Positions 4,255 to 10,279 of a stretch of 64,000 nt of DNA are shown here, one piece after another. Positions within the stretch are counted from its first letter, which is position 1. Each line of letters opens with the position of its first letter. Where the stretch lies: the NCBI GenBank assembly GCA_965205215.1, contig OZ242041.1, positions 224,001 through 288,000 of the forward strand, written 5' to 3'. A program made the translations under genes and the position numbers. Under the pieces are notes generated by a model. It was not told the origin of the DNA. It worked only from the letters and a program-made list of their open reading frames with translations, and searched no databases. Source of the DNA: Nitrosopumilus sp. GTDB taxonomy: Archaea > Thermoproteota > Nitrososphaeria > Nitrososphaerales > Nitrosopumilaceae.

Positions 4255-6978
4255 TCAACCCGACGTGCAGCCGCTGTACCCGCACTCTATGCAGATGCAG
4301 CACCCCTCTACAAACACGAGCCCGTTCTTGCAGGTGGGACAGAGCTGCTCCTCGGGTATGTCCCCGTGTCCGGGCGCCTGCTGGGCGGAGTCTTGGTCGG
4401 ATCCAGACGCAACGATCTCCTGATCGTGCGGCTTTATCGCGAGCGCCGCGTCGATCTGTCCCGATATGTACCGGTTGGTTATATTGGAGCGCACAAAGTC
4501 CATCACCCACCGGCTCGGCCTCACCTCAAAGTTCTTTTCCGCATTCTCGCTTGTCATGTGCAGCACCTGCTTTTGCCTCGAGCCGTCCCTGTACACGGTG
4601 ATTCCCTTGAGCCCCATCTCGTGCGCAAGCAGGTAGGCGGCCTTTACGTCATCGGCGGTGACGTCGTACGGCATGTTTATCGTCTTTGCGATCGCGTTGC
4701 CGATCCAGTTCTGCCACACGGACTGAGCCATCAGGTGGTCGGCCCAGTGTATGTCCATCGCAGTGACAAACACGTCCTGCATCCACTGCGGAATCTCCGG
4801 AATTCCGCGCAGAGACCCGTAATTGTCGGCAATCTTCTCTATAATCTCGTCAGAGTACAGTCCCTCCTCCATGAGGGCCCGCTTTACAATCTCGTTGGTG
4901 TAAAAGAACTTGCCCACCGTCACCCGCTTCTCAAAGACCAGCGCGAACGCGGGCTCCATGCCGTTTGAGCAGTTTGCAATCATCGACAGCGTGCCGGTGG
5001 GGGCCACCGTGGTGGTCAGCACGTTGCGTATGCCGTACTGCCTGATGTTCGATACGAGCGCGTCCCACTCGCAGGAGTGACGGCCCGTGGGCATCTCATA
5101 ATATGCGGCGACGGGTATCCGGCCCTCCGGATACTCGGACTTTGAGCAGAGCGGGAACTCGCCCCTTGACCTTGCAAGCGCCACGCTCTCGTCCATCGAA
5201 TAGTACGTGAGGGCCTCCGACAGCCTGGACTGCATCTCGTATCCCTCCTGCGAGTTGTACGGTATGCGCAGCTTGTAAAGCAGGTCGGCCACGCCCATCA
5301 CGCCGAGCCCGATGCGCCTAGACTCCTTGGAGGCCTCGTCGATCTCCGGCACCGGGTACAGGTTCACGTCAATCACGTTGTCAAGGAAGCGGGTGGTCTT
5401 CCGGATCACCTCCTCGTACCGCTGCCAGTCAAACTCGTACGAGCCGTCGGCCTGCTTTTTGACCAAGTTGGCCAGGTTTATCGATCCCAGGTTGCACGAC
5501 TCGTACGGGTACAGGCTCTGCTCGCCGCACGGGTTCGTCGCCCGCAGGGGCCCCTGCCGCGCCTTTGCAAACACGTTGTACTTGTTTATCTGGTCAAAGA
5601 ATATCAGCCCCGGCTCGGCGCTCCTCCACGCCGACATGGCTATCATATCTATGAGGTTGTGCGCCCTCACCTCCTTTACGGGCTTTTTGGTCTTGGGGCT
5701 GCGCAGCATGTAGGCGCCGCCGGTCCCGCCCTCCTCCGAGTCGTTCACCAGCGCCTCCCAAAAGTCCTCCCATATCCCGACTGACACGTTGAAGTTTTCT
5801 AGCACGCCAGGCTCTGTCTTGTTTGTGATGAACTTCTCAACGTCCGGATGCCACACCTCCATTATGCCCATGTTGGCCCCGCGGCGCTTGCCGCCCTGCT
5901 TTACCACCTCCGTTACGGTGTTTATTATGTTCATAAAGGACACGGGGCCGGACGCCACGCCGGACGTAGACGCCACTATGTCGCCCTCCTGGCGCAGGTC
6001 CGAGTAGTTTATGCCCACGCCCCCGCCGGACTTGAATATCATGGCGGCGTCCGACGTCGACTTCATTATGTGCTCCATGTCGTCGTCCATCCCAAGTACA
6101 AAGCACGCCGACAGCTGCCCGAGCCGGCCGCCTGCGTTCATCATGGTGGGCGAGTTTGGCAGAAAGTCCTGCGACACCATCAGGTTGTAGTACTCTTGGA
6201 TCTTGTCCGCGTACGCGTCAAGCCTCTTGCCGGCCAGCATAGTCAGCAGCTCCTTGAAGCTGGCCTTCATCTGGTTCTTCCTTGCCAGGTGCACGTAGTG
6301 GTTTATGAGAGCCCGAAAGTGCCACCTGTTGAGATGGAACTGCCCGATCCTGAACTTGCAGTCAAAGGCGTCCAGCTTGTCCAGGTACGACTCGGCCTCT
6401 GCCACATCCTGGTGCGAGCTGCCCGCCCTGTCAAACAGCTCCGAGTCATATAGCATGTCCCCGAGCCCGACCAGGATGGCCACCCGCTCGAACATCTGCG
6501 TGGGCGTCTCGACAATCTCGTTTTTGTTGTTGCGAAACAGATAGCGCGACGCCAGCACCCTCAGGCAGCTTATGTCGAAATCCTTTGAGACGGGATCAAG
6601 GGTCTTTAGGTTCAGCACCTTCATCTTCTCGTTGCGCACCTTGCGCCTCTCGTGCCGATACACGATGTACGCCTTTGCGATCTCGCTGTATCCCTTGTCG
6701 ATCAGGGTCGACTCGACCATGTCCTGTATGTCCTCCACGGAGGGCGGCATGGCGTTGGTAAAGCCCTGCTCTGCCAGCTTTGTGACGACGTGCCCGGACA
6801 GGGCGGCGGCAAGATCGCGGTCCGGCTTCGAGGTCGCGGCGAGCGCCATGTATATGGCGTTCGCGATCTTGTTCTGGTCAAAGTCCGTGATCTCCCCGTT
6901 GCGCTTGCGTATGACACTGATACCGGTACCCACCTGTGAATTATCCAAATTGCTACTCCCCGAAAGGGTTGAAAACAT
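4255..6978 (-). CDS. nrdJ: Adenosylcobalamin-dependent (class II) ribonucleotide reductase with N-terminal ATP cone
   Basis: IRKRNG ATP cone; PNSPTMMNAG, QLSACFV, KQGGKRRGANM, TNPCGEQ, ESCNLGS, APTGT, KGITVYRDGSR; C-terminal Cys-rich tail. Confidence 0.96.
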   Translation of the reverse strand: MFSTLSGSSNLDNSQVGTGISVIRKRNGEITDFDQNKIANAIYMALAATSKPDRDLAAALSGHVVTKLAEQGFTNAMPPSVEDIQDMVESTLIDKGYSEIAKAYIVYRHERRKVRNEKMKVLNLKTLDPVSKDFDISCLRVLASRYLFRNNKNEIVETPTQMFERVAILVGLGDMLYDSELFDRAGSSHQDVAEAESYLDKLDAFDCKFRIGQFHLNRWHFRALINHYVHLARKNQMKASFKELLTMLAGKRLDAYADKIQEYYNLMVSQDFLPNSPTMMNAGGRLGQLSACFVLGMDDDMEHIMKSTSDAAMIFKSGGGVGINYSDLRQEGDIVASTSGVASGPVSFMNIINTVTEVVKQGGKRRGANMGIMEVWHPDVEKFITNKTEPGVLENFNVSVGIWEDFWEALVNDSEEGGTGGAYMLRSPKTKKPVKEVRAHNLIDMIAMSAWRSAEPGLIFFDQINKYNVFAKARQGPLRATNPCGEQSLYPYESCNLGSINLANLVKKQADGSYEFDWQRYEEVIRKTTRFLDNVIDVNLYPVPEIDEASKESRRIGLGVMGVADLLYKLRIPYNSQEGYEMQSRLSEALTYYSMDESVALARSRGEFPLCSKSEYPEGRIPVAAYYEMPTGRHSCEWDALVSNIRQYGIRNVLTTTVAPTGTLSMIANCSNGMEPAFALVFEKRVTVGKFFYTNEIVKRALMEEGLYSDEIIEKIADNYGSLRGIPEIPQWMQDVFVTAMDIHWADHLMAQSVWQNWIGNAIAKTINMPYDVTADDVKAAYLLAHEMGLKGITVYRDGSRQKQVLHMTSENAEKNFEVRPSRWVMDFVRSNITNRYISGQIDAALAIKPHDQEIVASGSDQDSAQQAPGHGDIPEEQLCPTCKNGLVFVEGCCICIECGYSGCTSG

Positions 6979-7272
6979 ATGCTATATTAATTGTCTAGGC
7001 AAAAATCCCCACAATGTTTGGCCAAAAATATCGCGCCAACCGCGGATCGCGCCATGCCGGACTGCGAATATCATAATATGGACATGTGAATGCAGGGCCA
7101 GGGGGCGGTTTGTATATAACAAACCCGGGCAGGATCGGGCGGGCCGGACCGCGTGTTGCGATAATCGCAACACGGCACGCAAGCGGCACTGTATATTGGC
7201 TGGCCGCCTGTCTTTCAGGCAGAATGAACCATGGCGTGCACGGGAGAACGGGCGGCGTCATACCAAGCGGCG

Positions 7273-9402
7273 TCATACCGGGACGCGGCGCGGCGTCTGG
7301 CACTTGGGGCATTTTGAGTCAAACGGCCTGTCCTTGAAGCCGCACTCGGCGCACACGATAACCTCCTTTGAGGGGGAGAACGTCGGAACTAGGGCGGCCA
7401 TCTTCTCGATCGCCTTCCGTACCACGTCGGGATCCGTCTCCGTCTCCGGTATGCGCAGCACGACCTGGAGCCCCGCGTTGAGGGAGCGGCTCATCCTGTT
7501 GGACAGCGTAATGGGGGGGCTCTTGTTCGTGTACTTTTCAATGTCAGATACCTCAAACACCAGCCCTTGCGTGTAGGGTTTCGTCTGGCCCGGGCCCGTG
7601 ACATGCTTGCCGTACTTTTTGCCGTCGAGCCTGGCAAAGCGCTCGCCGGCCTCCGGCGCGTCCGCGATGCATATGGTCACCCGCTCGCCGGCCTCCCTTG
7701 CCCCGTTTGTCCCGGCATCCACCGCATGCGTGATTATCTTCTGGACTGTCTCCCTGCCCTTGCGGTTGTACTCGAACCCCAGGCCCTCAAAGACCGCCTC
7801 GCGGAGGCCCACCAGGTTTATGGTAAGCGACGCATAGCCGTACTGCATGTACTGCGTGTTTCTTGCAATGAGCGGGTTGAGGCCGCGGCGCGTGTTCTCA
7901 AACAGCTCCTTTTTGCGCGTTATTATGGCGTCCACCACGGGCTTTAGCAGTAGCACCAGCCTGGCCATAAAGTACTCGGCGTCGCCCCTGCCCACCTCGT
8001 ATGCCAGTCCCGCCAGATTGACGGACACCGACTGGAGCGCCATCGACATCTTGGAGTCGGTCTTGTTGAGGCTGCCGCCTGAGACGCCCCTGCTTGAGAC
8101 CTGCTGCGACTTTGTGAGCAGTACGCGTCCTCCGGCGATTACGATGTCGGCCAGGCGGCCGGAGACGGACTCTATACTGCCCTTGTCATAGCCTATGACG
8201 AGTCCTATGCGGGGCCTGGGAGTCAGCCTCACGTATCTAGAATAGGCGTTTATGATGCAGTCTACCAGCCGGGCATCGTCGTGCCCCATGTTGAGCCGTA
8301 TGGACGTTATGTTGCCGCCCTCCTTGGTGTGGGCGGGCACGACGGAGGAGGCGGCAAGCATCCACAGCAGTCCCGCCTCCATCTCGGCATCGCCTGCATC
8401 GGGGCACCTCTTTGCAAGCAGCCGGGGCAGGCCCGACACGACGACCTCCTCGGATGCCTCCCGTGATAGCAGGTGCAGCATGATGCATACAGAGGCCATT
8501 GCATCTGACGGCCCGCCAGACCTCGGAATGCGGGATGCCGACGCGTGCTTGCCGCCGATGTTCATGCCGCCGTCAAGAAGATCCTTTATGTTGACAAATA
8601 TCACGTCGGGCAGGGCAAACCACGTGCCGACATTTGATATGTGGATGGTGCCTGCCATGTGCCTGTCGGCGACGTCCTTCTGCAGCGAGCCGAACATGGT
8701 ATTCTCAACGAAGACGTTGCGGCCGGCCCTGCTGATCAGGCTCTCCATGCCGCCGTCCACCTCGTCCAGATTGTATAGCATCTGCTGCACGTCGTGCAGC
8801 GGCATGCCGAGGCGGACCAGCTTGTTACGGTACTCTTCGTTGTTTGTCTCCAACAAGACGGAGTTCACCATGTCCCTGATCAGAGAGCCCGTGATGTACG
8901 ATATCTCGTACTTGTGGATCTTGTTCTCCACCTCTTTTGTTATCTTTTCCGCCAGCTCATGGGGCATGTTTCCCTCCTTGACCAGCGACTGGACAATGCG
9001 GTGCTTTTTGAACTCGTCAATGGACGCAGACGACGAGCGCACCTGCAGTTTTCCGCTCTCCATGAACGCATTCTCCTCTATCTTTCCGGCAAGCTCCAGT
9101 ACGAGCTTGCCCTGGTTTGTAATGTTGTAACGGCGCTCGGACTTGTTGCGCTCTACGAGTGCCAGGGCCGTCAAGTCGCGCAAATGGTATGCAAACTTGC
9201 CGCTCTCCTTTTTGGATCCAAACCCCGCGAGGGCCTTTAGGTCGGTGTACGAGGTAGAGCCCTTCGAGTACAGCACCTTTAGTATTTCGAGCCGGCTTAT
9301 GTTGGACATAGACCGGAATATCGAGCTCATGCGTTTTTCAGTGGCCTTGGTGTGGTTTTTTTTCACGGGCCGGGACGGCGTAACTGTTTTTTTTAACTCC
9401 AT
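7273..9402 (-). CDS. ArsR-type wHTH + ATP cone + degenerate class III RNR (NrdD-like) fusion; probable regulator or pseudoenzyme
   Basis: RLEILKVL..FAYHLRDL wHTH; VRSS..F...RIVQSLVKE..IRDMVNSVLL cone; ADRHMAGTIHI, SVSVNLAGLAYE, INLVGLREAV and CAECG..CPKC NrdD landmarks. Confidence 0.85.
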   Translation of the reverse strand: MELKKTVTPSRPVKKNHTKATEKRMSSIFRSMSNISRLEILKVLYSKGSTSYTDLKALAGFGSKKESGKFAYHLRDLTALALVERNKSERRYNITNQGKLVLELAGKIEENAFMESGKLQVRSSSASIDEFKKHRIVQSLVKEGNMPHELAEKITKEVENKIHKYEISYITGSLIRDMVNSVLLETNNEEYRNKLVRLGMPLHDVQQMLYNLDEVDGGMESLISRAGRNVFVENTMFGSLQKDVADRHMAGTIHISNVGTWFALPDVIFVNIKDLLDGGMNIGGKHASASRIPRSGGPSDAMASVCIMLHLLSREASEEVVVSGLPRLLAKRCPDAGDAEMEAGLLWMLAASSVVPAHTKEGGNITSIRLNMGHDDARLVDCIINAYSRYVRLTPRPRIGLVIGYDKGSIESVSGRLADIVIAGGRVLLTKSQQVSSRGVSGGSLNKTDSKMSMALQSVSVNLAGLAYEVGRGDAEYFMARLVLLLKPVVDAIITRKKELFENTRRGLNPLIARNTQYMQYGYASLTINLVGLREAVFEGLGFEYNRKGRETVQKIITHAVDAGTNGAREAGERVTICIADAPEAGERFARLDGKKYGKHVTGPGQTKPYTQGLVFEVSDIEKYTNKSPPITLSNRMSRSLNAGLQVVLRIPETETDPDVVRKAIEKMAALVPTFSPSKEVIVCAECGFKDRPFDSKCPKCQTPRRVPV

Positions 9403-9687
9403 CCAGAATATGCTCCAAACCGGAGTAAATAAGAATTATGACGTGCCGCATGCCAAACAGTGGATGATCACATGCCAGAGCTGCAGATCTTTTGCGCCGT
9501 TGTCGAAGAGCCCGCGGGCGGCAGGCCGGACTGACGGCCGTTTAAGAACTGACCGCTGCGGGCACGGATGGCAGGCTTCAGGCAGGAGTGCTGTTTTCCT
9601 CCAGACCGCACGTTGCGCCCAGGACAGTTCTTGCATGGGGCAGGCCGTCGTCCTGCATGTCGCGCCCGCCGCCGTTCCTGGCGCGTG

Positions 9688-9849
9688 TCACTTTTCCCTG
9701 GCGTCGAGCTCAAACTCGGAAGACGACAGCTTTTCGCCGCATGCGGGGCACTTGCCGTTGTTCGAGGCCATCGCGTCTTTGAGGGACTTTAGCATCTTCA
9801 TGTTTGTGATCTTTTCGCCGCACTTGCCGCATACCACATTCACAGACAT
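9688..9849 (-). CDS. Small zinc-ribbon protein (53 aa), missing from the ORF track
   Basis: MSVNVVCGKCGEKITNMKMLKSLKDAMASNNGKCPACGEKLSSSEFELDAREK; TTTTATT box ~25 bp upstream. Confidence 0.85.
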   Translation of the reverse strand: MSVNVVCGKCGEKITNMKMLKSLKDAMASNNGKCPACGEKLSSSEFELDAREK

Positions 9850-9901
9850 GATACACCGGTCGGAGGGCGCAAAATAAAATTGTTGTCGCGCGGCGGGCCG
9901 T

Positions 9902-10279
9902 TCAGGAAGCGCCGTCGTCCTTTGAGATTACTATGCCGCGCTCATCAAAGCCGGTAATCTTGGCCCTGGTACCGACGGGCAGATCAGCCGGAGTCGCAAT
10001 GTCCGCCATGAACCCCGATATGCGGAGCTCGGAATCGTCGAGGCGCAGCACGACAAACGCGTACGGGGTATACCCTTCGAATCCCGCGGGGGGGACGGTA
10101 ATTATCGTGTACGTAGCAACGCTGCCGCGCCCTTCCAGCACGACGGGCTCAAAGCCCTTTGCCCCACAGCCCTGGCAAAAGTAGACCGTGCTCAGGTGCA
10201 GGCGCCCGCAAGCGGTGCACTTGTGCGTAAACACCTTGCCCTCTCTGGCGTAATTTATCATCTGTTCCTTTGCAGACAT
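9902..10279 (-). CDS. DUF35 Zn-ribbon/OB-fold thiolase partner protein
   Basis: CTACG..CQGCG, G.VATYTII.VPP.GF...PY; adjacent to a thiolase. Confidence 0.92.
   Translation of the reverse strand: MSAKEQMINYAREGKVFTHKCTACGRLHLSTVYFCQGCGAKGFEPVVLEGRGSVATYTIITVPPAGFEGYTPYAFVVLRLDDSELRISGFMADIATPADLPVGTRAKITGFDERGIVISKDDGAS

Follow-up and report, generated by a model that had tools for sequence, protein, structure and literature searches.

A stretch of 64,000 nucleotides (nt) from Nitrosopumilus sp. (GenBank assembly GCA_965205215.1, contig OZ242041.1, positions 224,001 to 288,000 of the forward strand; hereafter the window, in whose coordinates positions are given unless marked otherwise) contains a gene that resembles nrdD, the gene of the anaerobic, class III ribonucleotide reductase (RNR). 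The gene is an intact open reading frame (ORF) of 709 codons with zero internal stops. It is followed directly on the same strand by nrdJ, the gene of a class II RNR, and the two are separated by a 294-nt spacer (6979-7272). The encoded protein joins a winged helix-turn-helix domain, a divergent ATP-cone and a body of the NrdD type (table 1), and it is considered here as a candidate regulator of nrdJ. The genome consists of a single contig of 2,098,239 bases and is 95% complete.

Table 1. Features of the regulator-nrdJ locus, in window coordinates.
Feature	Coordinates	Strand	Basis
nrdJ, class II RNR (adenosylcobalamin-dependent) carrying a canonical ATP-cone of its own, presumed target	4255..6978	-	TIGR02504, Pfam
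TATA-like element in a short inverted repeat (GTTTG-TTATATA-CAAAC), possible nrdJ promoter element	7108..7124	-	Role suggested by the sequence
Perfect 23-nt palindrome CGTGTTGCGATTATCGCAACACG with core CGATNATCG, candidate operator	7152..7174	.	Read from the sequence, comparison of spacers
Gene for the 709-residue winged-helix/ATP-cone/dead-NrdD protein, candidate regulator	7273..9402	-	ORF, domain profiles, predicted fold, alignment to E. coli NrdD
Zinc site CxxC...CxxC at residues 684-701; stop codon after 8 more residues, glycyl-radical domain missing	7300..7353	-	Alignment
NrdD-type barrel body lacking the catalytic residues, from about residue 215 to 680	7363..8760	-	hhalign, Foldseek, column counts
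Divergent ATP-cone, residues 120-191	8830..9045	-	Pfam PF03477
Winged helix-turn-helix, residues 27-103, recognition helix around KKESGKFAYHLR	9094..9324	-	Pfam DUF7347

The winged helix matches Pfam DUF7347 with 34.5 bits (cut-off 27.6), and in an AlphaFold model of the protein it is built from helices at residues 35-47, 52-58 and 64-79 followed by a hairpin at residues 83-94. The first-pass annotation of the locus, made from the sequence alone, had called this domain ArsR-type. The winged helix itself holds, whereas the ArsR label is weakly backed: the NCBIfam model HTH_metalloreg gives 18.6 bits against a cut-off of 55 and the family profile matches the ArsR chain 6j05 at E = 0.0086, a weak match. 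The order of the helices and the wing are shared with ArsR/SmtB proteins in the model, but here the domain is fused to a cone and an RNR body and stays below the NCBIfam cut-off for ArsR. One long helix (residues 96-115 of the model) joins the winged helix directly to the cone, which matches Pfam PF03477 with 30.8 bits (cut-off 25.8). Further along the chain, Pfam NRDD covers residues 424-703 with profile positions 263-529 of 562 (78.9 bits), which is the second half of that model. The four cysteines of the zinc site (C684, C687, C698, and C701) are invariant in an alignment of 28 family members (alignment A1) and align with C644, C647, C662, and C665 of Escherichia coli NrdD. The architecture proposed at first pass, an ATP-cone followed by an NrdD body that runs through to the paired CxxC motifs and then stops within eight residues, is borne out by these matches, with C701 as the last zinc cysteine and residue 709 as the end of the protein.

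The relationship to NrdD was analysed with alignment A1, which was used for the profile search, for hhalign and for the AlphaFold model (mean predicted local distance difference test score 84.1, predicted template modelling score 0.75); the E. coli NrdD reference was taken from NC_000913. A phmmer search of the PDB with the single window sequence found no NrdD, only chance matches at E ≥ 0.34. A single sequence thus misses the solved NrdDs and a family profile is needed. The A1 profile matched the NrdD structures 9d3x, 8p23, 4coi, 4u3e, and 1h78 (from S. thermophilus, P. copri, T. maritima, and phage T4) at E-values of 5e-28 to 5e-22, and hhalign of A1 against E. coli NrdD gave a probability of 99.65. 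A Foldseek search with the model returned class III RNRs at all of ranks 1-36 (best E 6.5e-20), with class I RNRs next. The score against the curated NrdD model TIGR02487 is 62.7 bits, a fifth of its cut-off of 326.35.

In E. coli numbering, the thiyl radical of NrdD forms on C384 in the finger loop, C175 is the second active-site cysteine and G681 carries the glycyl radical. The corresponding radical site of T4 NrdD is Gly580 (Table 1 of PMC2795772). In the hhalign alignment C175 (FNCMLID) is replaced by V267 (PDVIFVN) and C384 (MGCRSF) by V435 (QQVSSRG), N412 is retained as N462, and the end of the chain at residue 709 precedes the position of G681, leaving the RxxGY glycyl-radical domain missing. 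The two cysteine positions had previously been placed by eye in the segments LPDVIF and SSRGVS; the C175 column does lie inside LPDVIF, the C384 column lies one residue before SSRGVS (a small offset), and neither stretch contains a cysteine. Residues in these columns were counted in 215 sequences, consisting of the window protein and the 214 out of 269 family proteins that measure 600-830 residues; they were chosen by length only, and the set is dominated by Nitrosopumilus. None of the 215 sequences carries a cysteine in either catalytic column; three and four sequences, respectively, have one a few columns away, and in the case of C384 the four have it one column further on. The C175 column contains Thr (141 sequences), Glu (16), Val (15), Ser (15) and smaller counts of other residues. 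The position of N462, on the other hand, is Asn in 213 of the 215 sequences, and in the NLPR motif around it the Pro is kept in 203 and the Arg in 190. At 8017-8028 of the window (the region of residues 459-462) this motif reads NLAG, and it reads NLPS in the closest relatives.

As far as sequence and fold can show, the protein is therefore a class III RNR body that is no longer able to carry out radical chemistry, that is, a homologue of NrdD but not a functional member of the family. The first-pass annotation had called it a pseudoenzyme and had suggested a profile or structure alignment to NrdD as a check. That alignment finds both cysteines and the glycine loop lost, the columns are free of cysteine throughout the 215 sequences, and the genome holds no activase (see below). 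The NrdD enzymes of E. coli, phage T4, T. maritima, P. copri, and S. thermophilus share with the window protein the fold, an N-terminal ATP-cone, the active-site Asn and the C-terminal four-cysteine zinc site, and differ from it in that here both cysteines are Val, the radical domain is deleted, NrdG is missing from the genome and an extra winged helix stands at the N-terminus. It could be argued that the protein is still an enzyme, with a chemistry that needs neither the cysteine pair nor a glycyl radical, because the family has kept the barrel, the zinc site and N462 within its NLPR-type motif. With both cysteines, the whole radical domain and the activase missing, NLPR changed to NLAG in the window copy and the former active-site body the least conserved part of the protein, this is highly improbable. 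Ammonia oxidisers are, in addition, aerobic, which also counts against such an enzyme.

The genome was searched for other RNR genes and their accessory proteins. The nrdJ product scores 734.6 bits against TIGR02504 (cut-off 399.95) and is the single match to Ribonuc_red_lgC, the RNR barrel, in the genome. No second NrdD was found in the genome, where the match to the NrdD model is limited to the ORF described here, and no class I small subunit was found either; nrdJ is therefore the only working RNR found. The absence of an activase gene, noted at first pass for the window, extends from the window to the 95%-complete genome, in which models for NrdG gave nothing above cut-off (TIGR02495 at best 36.9 against 131.15 bits and TIGR02491 33.1 against 126.1 bits); below the cut-offs they picked up a QueE-like protein, Tes (the tetraether synthase) and a generic radical S-adenosylmethionine protein. 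NrdR (TIGR00244) has no match in the genome, nor does it appear among the NCBIfam matches of the regulator protein. This search suggests that the place of NrdR is vacant in this archaeon, and NrdR is described as rare in archaea in passages of PMC9110341.

The neighborhood of the gene was compared in the best 80 of at least 600 matches in genome contigs; these 80 all belong to ammonia-oxidising Nitrososphaerota according to their titles. In 72 of these 80 loci nrdJ lies directly downstream on the same strand, at a distance of 183-566 nt. The other eight contigs end at most 561 nt after the regulator gene and leave no room for nrdJ, which means that the link is unbroken in all informative loci (72 out of 72). 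Synteny with nrdJ across genomes, which had been put forward as a check at first pass, is thus found wherever the contig reaches far enough.

The family extends well beyond these loci. A word-indexed protein search returned 2965 matches at E ≤ 0.001 among 8000 scored candidates, and an exhaustive search of cluster representatives returned 906 at E ≤ 0.001 and 130 at E ≤ 1e-30. At E ≤ 1e-10, 329 out of 401 genomes of the phylum were matched, a list whose weak end probably takes in true NrdD proteins and bare cones, and a match is present in every scored genome of the same family as the window (56 out of 56). The 906 representatives together with the 56 out of 56 genomes indicate that the protein is kept by selection. 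Its relatives carry the public names "anaerobic ribonucleoside-triphosphate reductase", "ribonucleoside-triphosphate reductase (formate)" and "helix-turn-helix domain-containing protein", the first of which is the mislabelling that the first-pass annotation had expected from automated pipelines.

Two forms of the protein can be distinguished. The short form of ~700 residues, to which the window protein belongs, ends at most 15 residues past the last CxxC motif in 146 out of 196 CxxC-bearing sequences. The long form (~740-800 residues) carries a tail that hhalign aligns to the glycyl-radical domain, and RxxG[YFH] is present in just 2 of 35 such tails. Long members in other Thermoproteota share the order of the three domains and the motifs of the winged helix and the cone, which hardly vary, and their catalytic columns also lack cysteine; they differ from the form of the ammonia oxidisers in retaining a vestigial tail that resembles the glycyl-radical domain, of which the window protein has nothing. 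The radical domain is decayed in the long form and gone in the short form, which places the window's form at the end of a series. No description of the family was found in the full-text literature, subscription journals and supplementary files being outside the search, and it is not mentioned in passages of three papers on RNR evolution and databases.

Sequence conservation is unevenly distributed along the protein. Mean pairwise identity among 71 loci (leaving out the window and its near-twin, locus L008) reaches 98.9% for the winged helix and 96.3% for the cone; it drops to 83.4% in the stretch that follows the cone and to 74.6% in the barrel body, and amounts to 79.0% in the zinc ribbon. 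A stretch of 66 residues of the winged helix is identical in 65 out of 73 loci, and in alignment A1 the recognition helix hardly changes even between very distant lineages. In a true enzyme the body with the active site would be expected to be the best kept part, whereas here it is the two N-terminal heads. This gradient bears on the possibility that the protein does not act on DNA at all and is instead a protein-level partner or buffer, such as a pseudoenzyme that binds nucleotides and modulates NrdJ or sequesters ribo- or deoxyribonucleoside triphosphates (NTPs or dNTPs), with the winged helix used for protein contacts. The conservation of the body at 74.6% and the near-universal N462 do suggest a retained ligand pocket. 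Against it stand a winged helix that is better conserved than any other part and is laid out like an ArsR-type domain that reads DNA, and a conserved palindrome at the place expected for an operator; nothing in the data, which include no test for it, points to a contact with NrdJ, and a role confined to the protein level is improbable.

The lineage of the window itself departs from this pattern. Its winged helix and cone share 66% identity with those of the other loci, whereas the latter agree with one another at about 99% (winged helix) and 96% (cone). Together with the change to NLAG, the unusually diverged heads point to faster evolution in this GC-rich lineage.

The palindrome between the two genes starts 98 nt past the stop codon of the regulator gene, and the TATA-like element lies 47 nt downstream of its centre. 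A total of 73 regulator-nrdJ spacers (72 loci and the window) were compared. The exact core CGATNATCG is present in 48 of them, compared with a mean of 0.14 and a maximum of two loci in 200 mononucleotide shuffles. AT-rich relatives mostly carry GCGATCATCGT and some carry GTTGCGATCATCGTCAAC, which is close to the GTTGCGATTATCGCAAC of the window; the conserved part in these relatives consists of 4-nt arms around one central base. In seven spacers, four of them from Nitrosotenuis loci, the core is replaced by CGAAATTCG, and in the close relative L008 the symmetry is kept through a change on both arms. The core is shared by the window genome with its 59% GC and by the AT-rich relatives, so the motif survives a shift from about 34% GC (an estimated value) to 59%. 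As the loci are kin and much of the spacer is conserved among 22 aligned Nitrosopumilus-type spacers, it is this comparison with the GC-rich window that is the most telling.

The palindrome might alternatively form a hairpin in RNA or DNA, acting as a terminator of the regulator gene or as an element of the 5' untranslated region, and not as a site for a protein. It is perfect over 23 nt, its predicted RNA fold has -22.9 kcal/mol, and the paired change in L008 would fit such a structure. The fold is, however, no better than that of shuffled sequences (z = -1.54; 12 out of 200 fold as well), no T-run follows the palindrome, no Rfam match was found in 6800-9950, and the 4-nt conserved arms of the AT-rich relatives are too short for a stable hairpin. 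A hairpin is accordingly quite improbable.

Within the 2.1-Mb genome the 11-nt motif GCGATNATCGC occurs at just two places, the nrdJ spacer and the inside of an AsnB-like ORF. The second copy (G000:C1:1370813-1370823, outside the window) extends to the 16 letters TTGCGATTATCGCAAC and is located ~190 nt inside an ORF of 362 codons whose product has the look of an AsnB-type PP-loop enzyme (a label taken from the sequence, with no family search aimed at it) and bears a zinc ribbon at its C-terminus. Any given 16-mer would be expected about 0.0005 times per 2.1 Mb; the copy may be a further binding site or may have arisen by coincidence in coding sequence. The 10-mer GCGATCATCG was located in five complete relatives at a total of seven sites, one or two per genome. 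Just two of the seven are at nrdJ, which indicates that the strict 10-mer is too narrow and that no regulon can be defined with it. A further repeat was noted in the first 60 nt past the regulator stop codon in the Nitrosopumilus-type spacers of loci L009-L063, where GATCA occurs three times with a spacing of ~20 nt, the third time inside the CGATCATCG core; these repeats may mark phased sites bound by an oligomer or may belong to a terminator rich in T.

Combining these observations, the most probable reading, with a probability of roughly 0.6, is that the protein is a nucleotide-sensing transcription regulator of nrdJ that resembles NrdR in its working and is built from a dead RNR. The first-pass annotation had proposed such a (d)NTP-sensing transcription factor for nrdJ, an archaeal functional analogue of NrdR, and those of its refuting conditions that could be checked by computation all came out in favour of the proposal. 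The regulator role is well supported by the context; the binding to DNA, the ligand and the sign of the effect (repressor or activator) are presumed. In this mechanism the body would serve as a dimeric, ligand-responsive scaffold that bears the N-terminal winged helix and the ATP-cone, and the two winged helices of the dimer would bind the palindrome between the regulator gene and nrdJ. Adenine nucleotides on the cone, and possibly dNTPs at sites inherited from NrdD, would shift the cones relative to the winged helices, and this shift would adjust the transcription of the cell's sole RNR gene to the supply of dNTPs. Because the winged helix is joined directly to the cone, a change in the cone driven by nucleotides would be expected to move the two winged helices of the dimer and to switch the binding of the palindrome. 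In a true class III RNR, ATP and dATP put the cones in markedly different conformations and dATP dimerises them, according to passages of PMC12662201. A more far-reaching version would have the body retain the specificity site at the dimer interface and the former substrate pocket around Asn462, so that the protein, together with its cone, translates two signals, the ATP/dATP ratio and how the four dNTPs are balanced, into the transcription of the sole RNR. An entire allosteric enzyme would then have become a transcription factor, acting as the main regulator of dNTP supply across the ammonia-oxidising archaea and other Thermoproteota in the position occupied by NrdR in bacteria; this version is rather doubtful.

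The likeness to NrdR concerns the proposed logic: an ATP-cone combined with a DNA-binding domain, a gene located beside RNR genes and a palindromic box upstream of an RNR gene. The parts themselves differ. NrdR consists of a zinc ribbon and a cone with the K50/R51 pair, whereas the window protein has a winged helix, a cone without the pair and a dead RNR body of 500 residues. NrdR uses two 16-bp boxes at the promoter, whereas here a single candidate palindrome lies far upstream and none precedes the regulator's own gene. The protein is at best NrdR-like in its working and not a member of NrdR.

Several points weigh against a nucleotide-sensing regulator of nrdJ. The first concerns the cone, whose Pfam match of 30.8 bits is weak and in which the canonical Lys-Arg pair, as aligned to the cones of NrdJ and E. 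coli NrdD, is replaced by S123-S124 (Thr/Ser-Ser in the family). In NrdR of S. coelicolor, K50 and R51 bind the nucleotide phosphates, as reported in passages of PMC9110341. Nucleotide sensing is the least secure part of the reading because Ser-Ser takes the place of this phosphate-binding pair. V121, R122, F131, and I136 of the cone are invariant in A1 and an acidic residue stands at the E56 position; invariant residues together with Ser-Ser in place of Lys-Arg mark the cone as a conserved yet non-canonical variant, for which the binding of adenine nucleotides is plausible from its sequence.

The second set of points concerns the candidate operator. From the centre of the palindrome to the ATG of nrdJ the distance is 185 nt, which places the candidate operator far upstream. 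The exact core is missing from 25 of the 73 spacers, in which the best site has one mismatch in five cases, two in 17 and three in three. Upstream of the regulator's own gene, where it would be a sign of autoregulation, the core was seen in just 1 of 81 cases, and in spacers from distant lineages the core (CGAWNWTCG) was seen in none out of eight; the short GTATAC-like palindromes present in distant spacers lie in AT-rich DNA, where chance matches and TATA boxes look the same. Because the 73 loci are related, the conservation of their spacers is partly a matter of shared descent. The palindrome could also be bound by another factor. Finally, no covariation of protein and operator was seen between spacers with CGATNATCG and those with CGAAATTCG, and none is readable because the recognition helix does not vary.

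The third point comes from more distant relatives, of which 20 loci were picked across 17 coded families. nrdJ lies directly downstream in five of them, and in three a second, full-length NrdD-like gene does, aligned to E. coli NrdD up to residue 705-706. The remaining 12 loci have no RNR gene within about 6 kb, and among 10 neighbor ORFs scanned in these 12 loci five encode the aspartate carbamoyltransferase subunits pyrB or pyrI. The nrdJ, nrdD-like and pyrB/pyrI neighbors suggest an association with nucleotide-supply genes in general and with two classes of RNR in particular. In one distant locus (L125), the spacer that separates the regulator homologue from the nrdD-like gene after it encodes a small protein with a CPRC motif, which by eye only has the look of a glutaredoxin or NrdH-type redoxin.

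The distant loci also speak for a broader DNA-binding role, either as a regulator of nucleotide metabolism or replication or as a chromatin-type protein, in which case the adjacency to nrdJ would be inherited gene order. Besides the 12 loci without an RNR gene and their pyrB and pyrI neighbors, such a role is suggested by a recognition helix that is nearly invariant even though the CGATNATCG core is not seen in distant spacers, and by the second copy of the extended palindrome inside the AsnB-like gene. On the other side, genes of two RNR classes adjoin the regulator in eight distant loci (five with nrdJ and three with the nrdD-like gene), the link to nrdJ holds in every informative locus of the ammonia oxidisers, and one of the two genomic places of the 11-nt motif is at nrdJ. 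The presence of the 10-mer just once or twice per genome in the five relatives further speaks against a large regulon. A broader role is thus unlikely, and a regulator directed at nrdJ is preferred.

The transcriptional control of RNR in archaea is a largely open question, and ammonia-oxidising archaea are among the most abundant microbes of the ocean and the soil. Here the gene of a candidate regulator adjoins the gene of a cobalamin-dependent enzyme, the sole RNR of the cell. If the proposed role is true, dNTP homeostasis in ammonia oxidisers could be tested on a defined protein and a defined DNA site, and the protein would clearly exemplify the reuse of an enzyme fold in a transcription factor that senses a ligand. 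A systematic mis-annotation would be corrected as well, since the label "anaerobic ribonucleotide reductase" could mislead metabolic and ecological conclusions on anaerobic capacity.

The regulator gene and nrdJ are both partly represented, with 90-99% identity, among RNA-library contigs from two studies labelled sponge metagenome. On the regulator gene these contigs cover 7738-7997, 8643-8930, and 8902-9257 in study X1 and 7346-7553, 7877-8140, and 8932-9237 in study X2. They leave 7090-7278 uncovered and the spacer unbridged, and are uninformative on co-transcription of the two genes. As DNA can be present in RNA libraries, they hint only weakly at transcription.

An ORF of 53 codons with two CxxC pairs (9688-9849, likewise on the minus strand) precedes the regulator gene. 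It is found in 78 of the 80 loci with 60-96% identity, and the other two contigs begin too near the regulator gene. The ORF is better conserved than the regulator (about 50%) and has no Pfam or NCBIfam match above cut-off; a homologue is located ~4.4 kb away in one locus of a sister family (L117). Further upstream, the segment 9902-11629 (minus strand) carries a DUF35-type gene, encoding an oligonucleotide/oligosaccharide-binding fold with a zinc ribbon, and a thiolase-like gene. In a distant relative of coded family f10 (locus L134, 8213-10843), a DUF35-type gene, identified by Pfam, is likewise located directly upstream of the regulator homologue and is followed by ORFs of 384 and 354 codons, which suggests that a DUF35-type gene upstream of the regulator may be an old conserved gene order.

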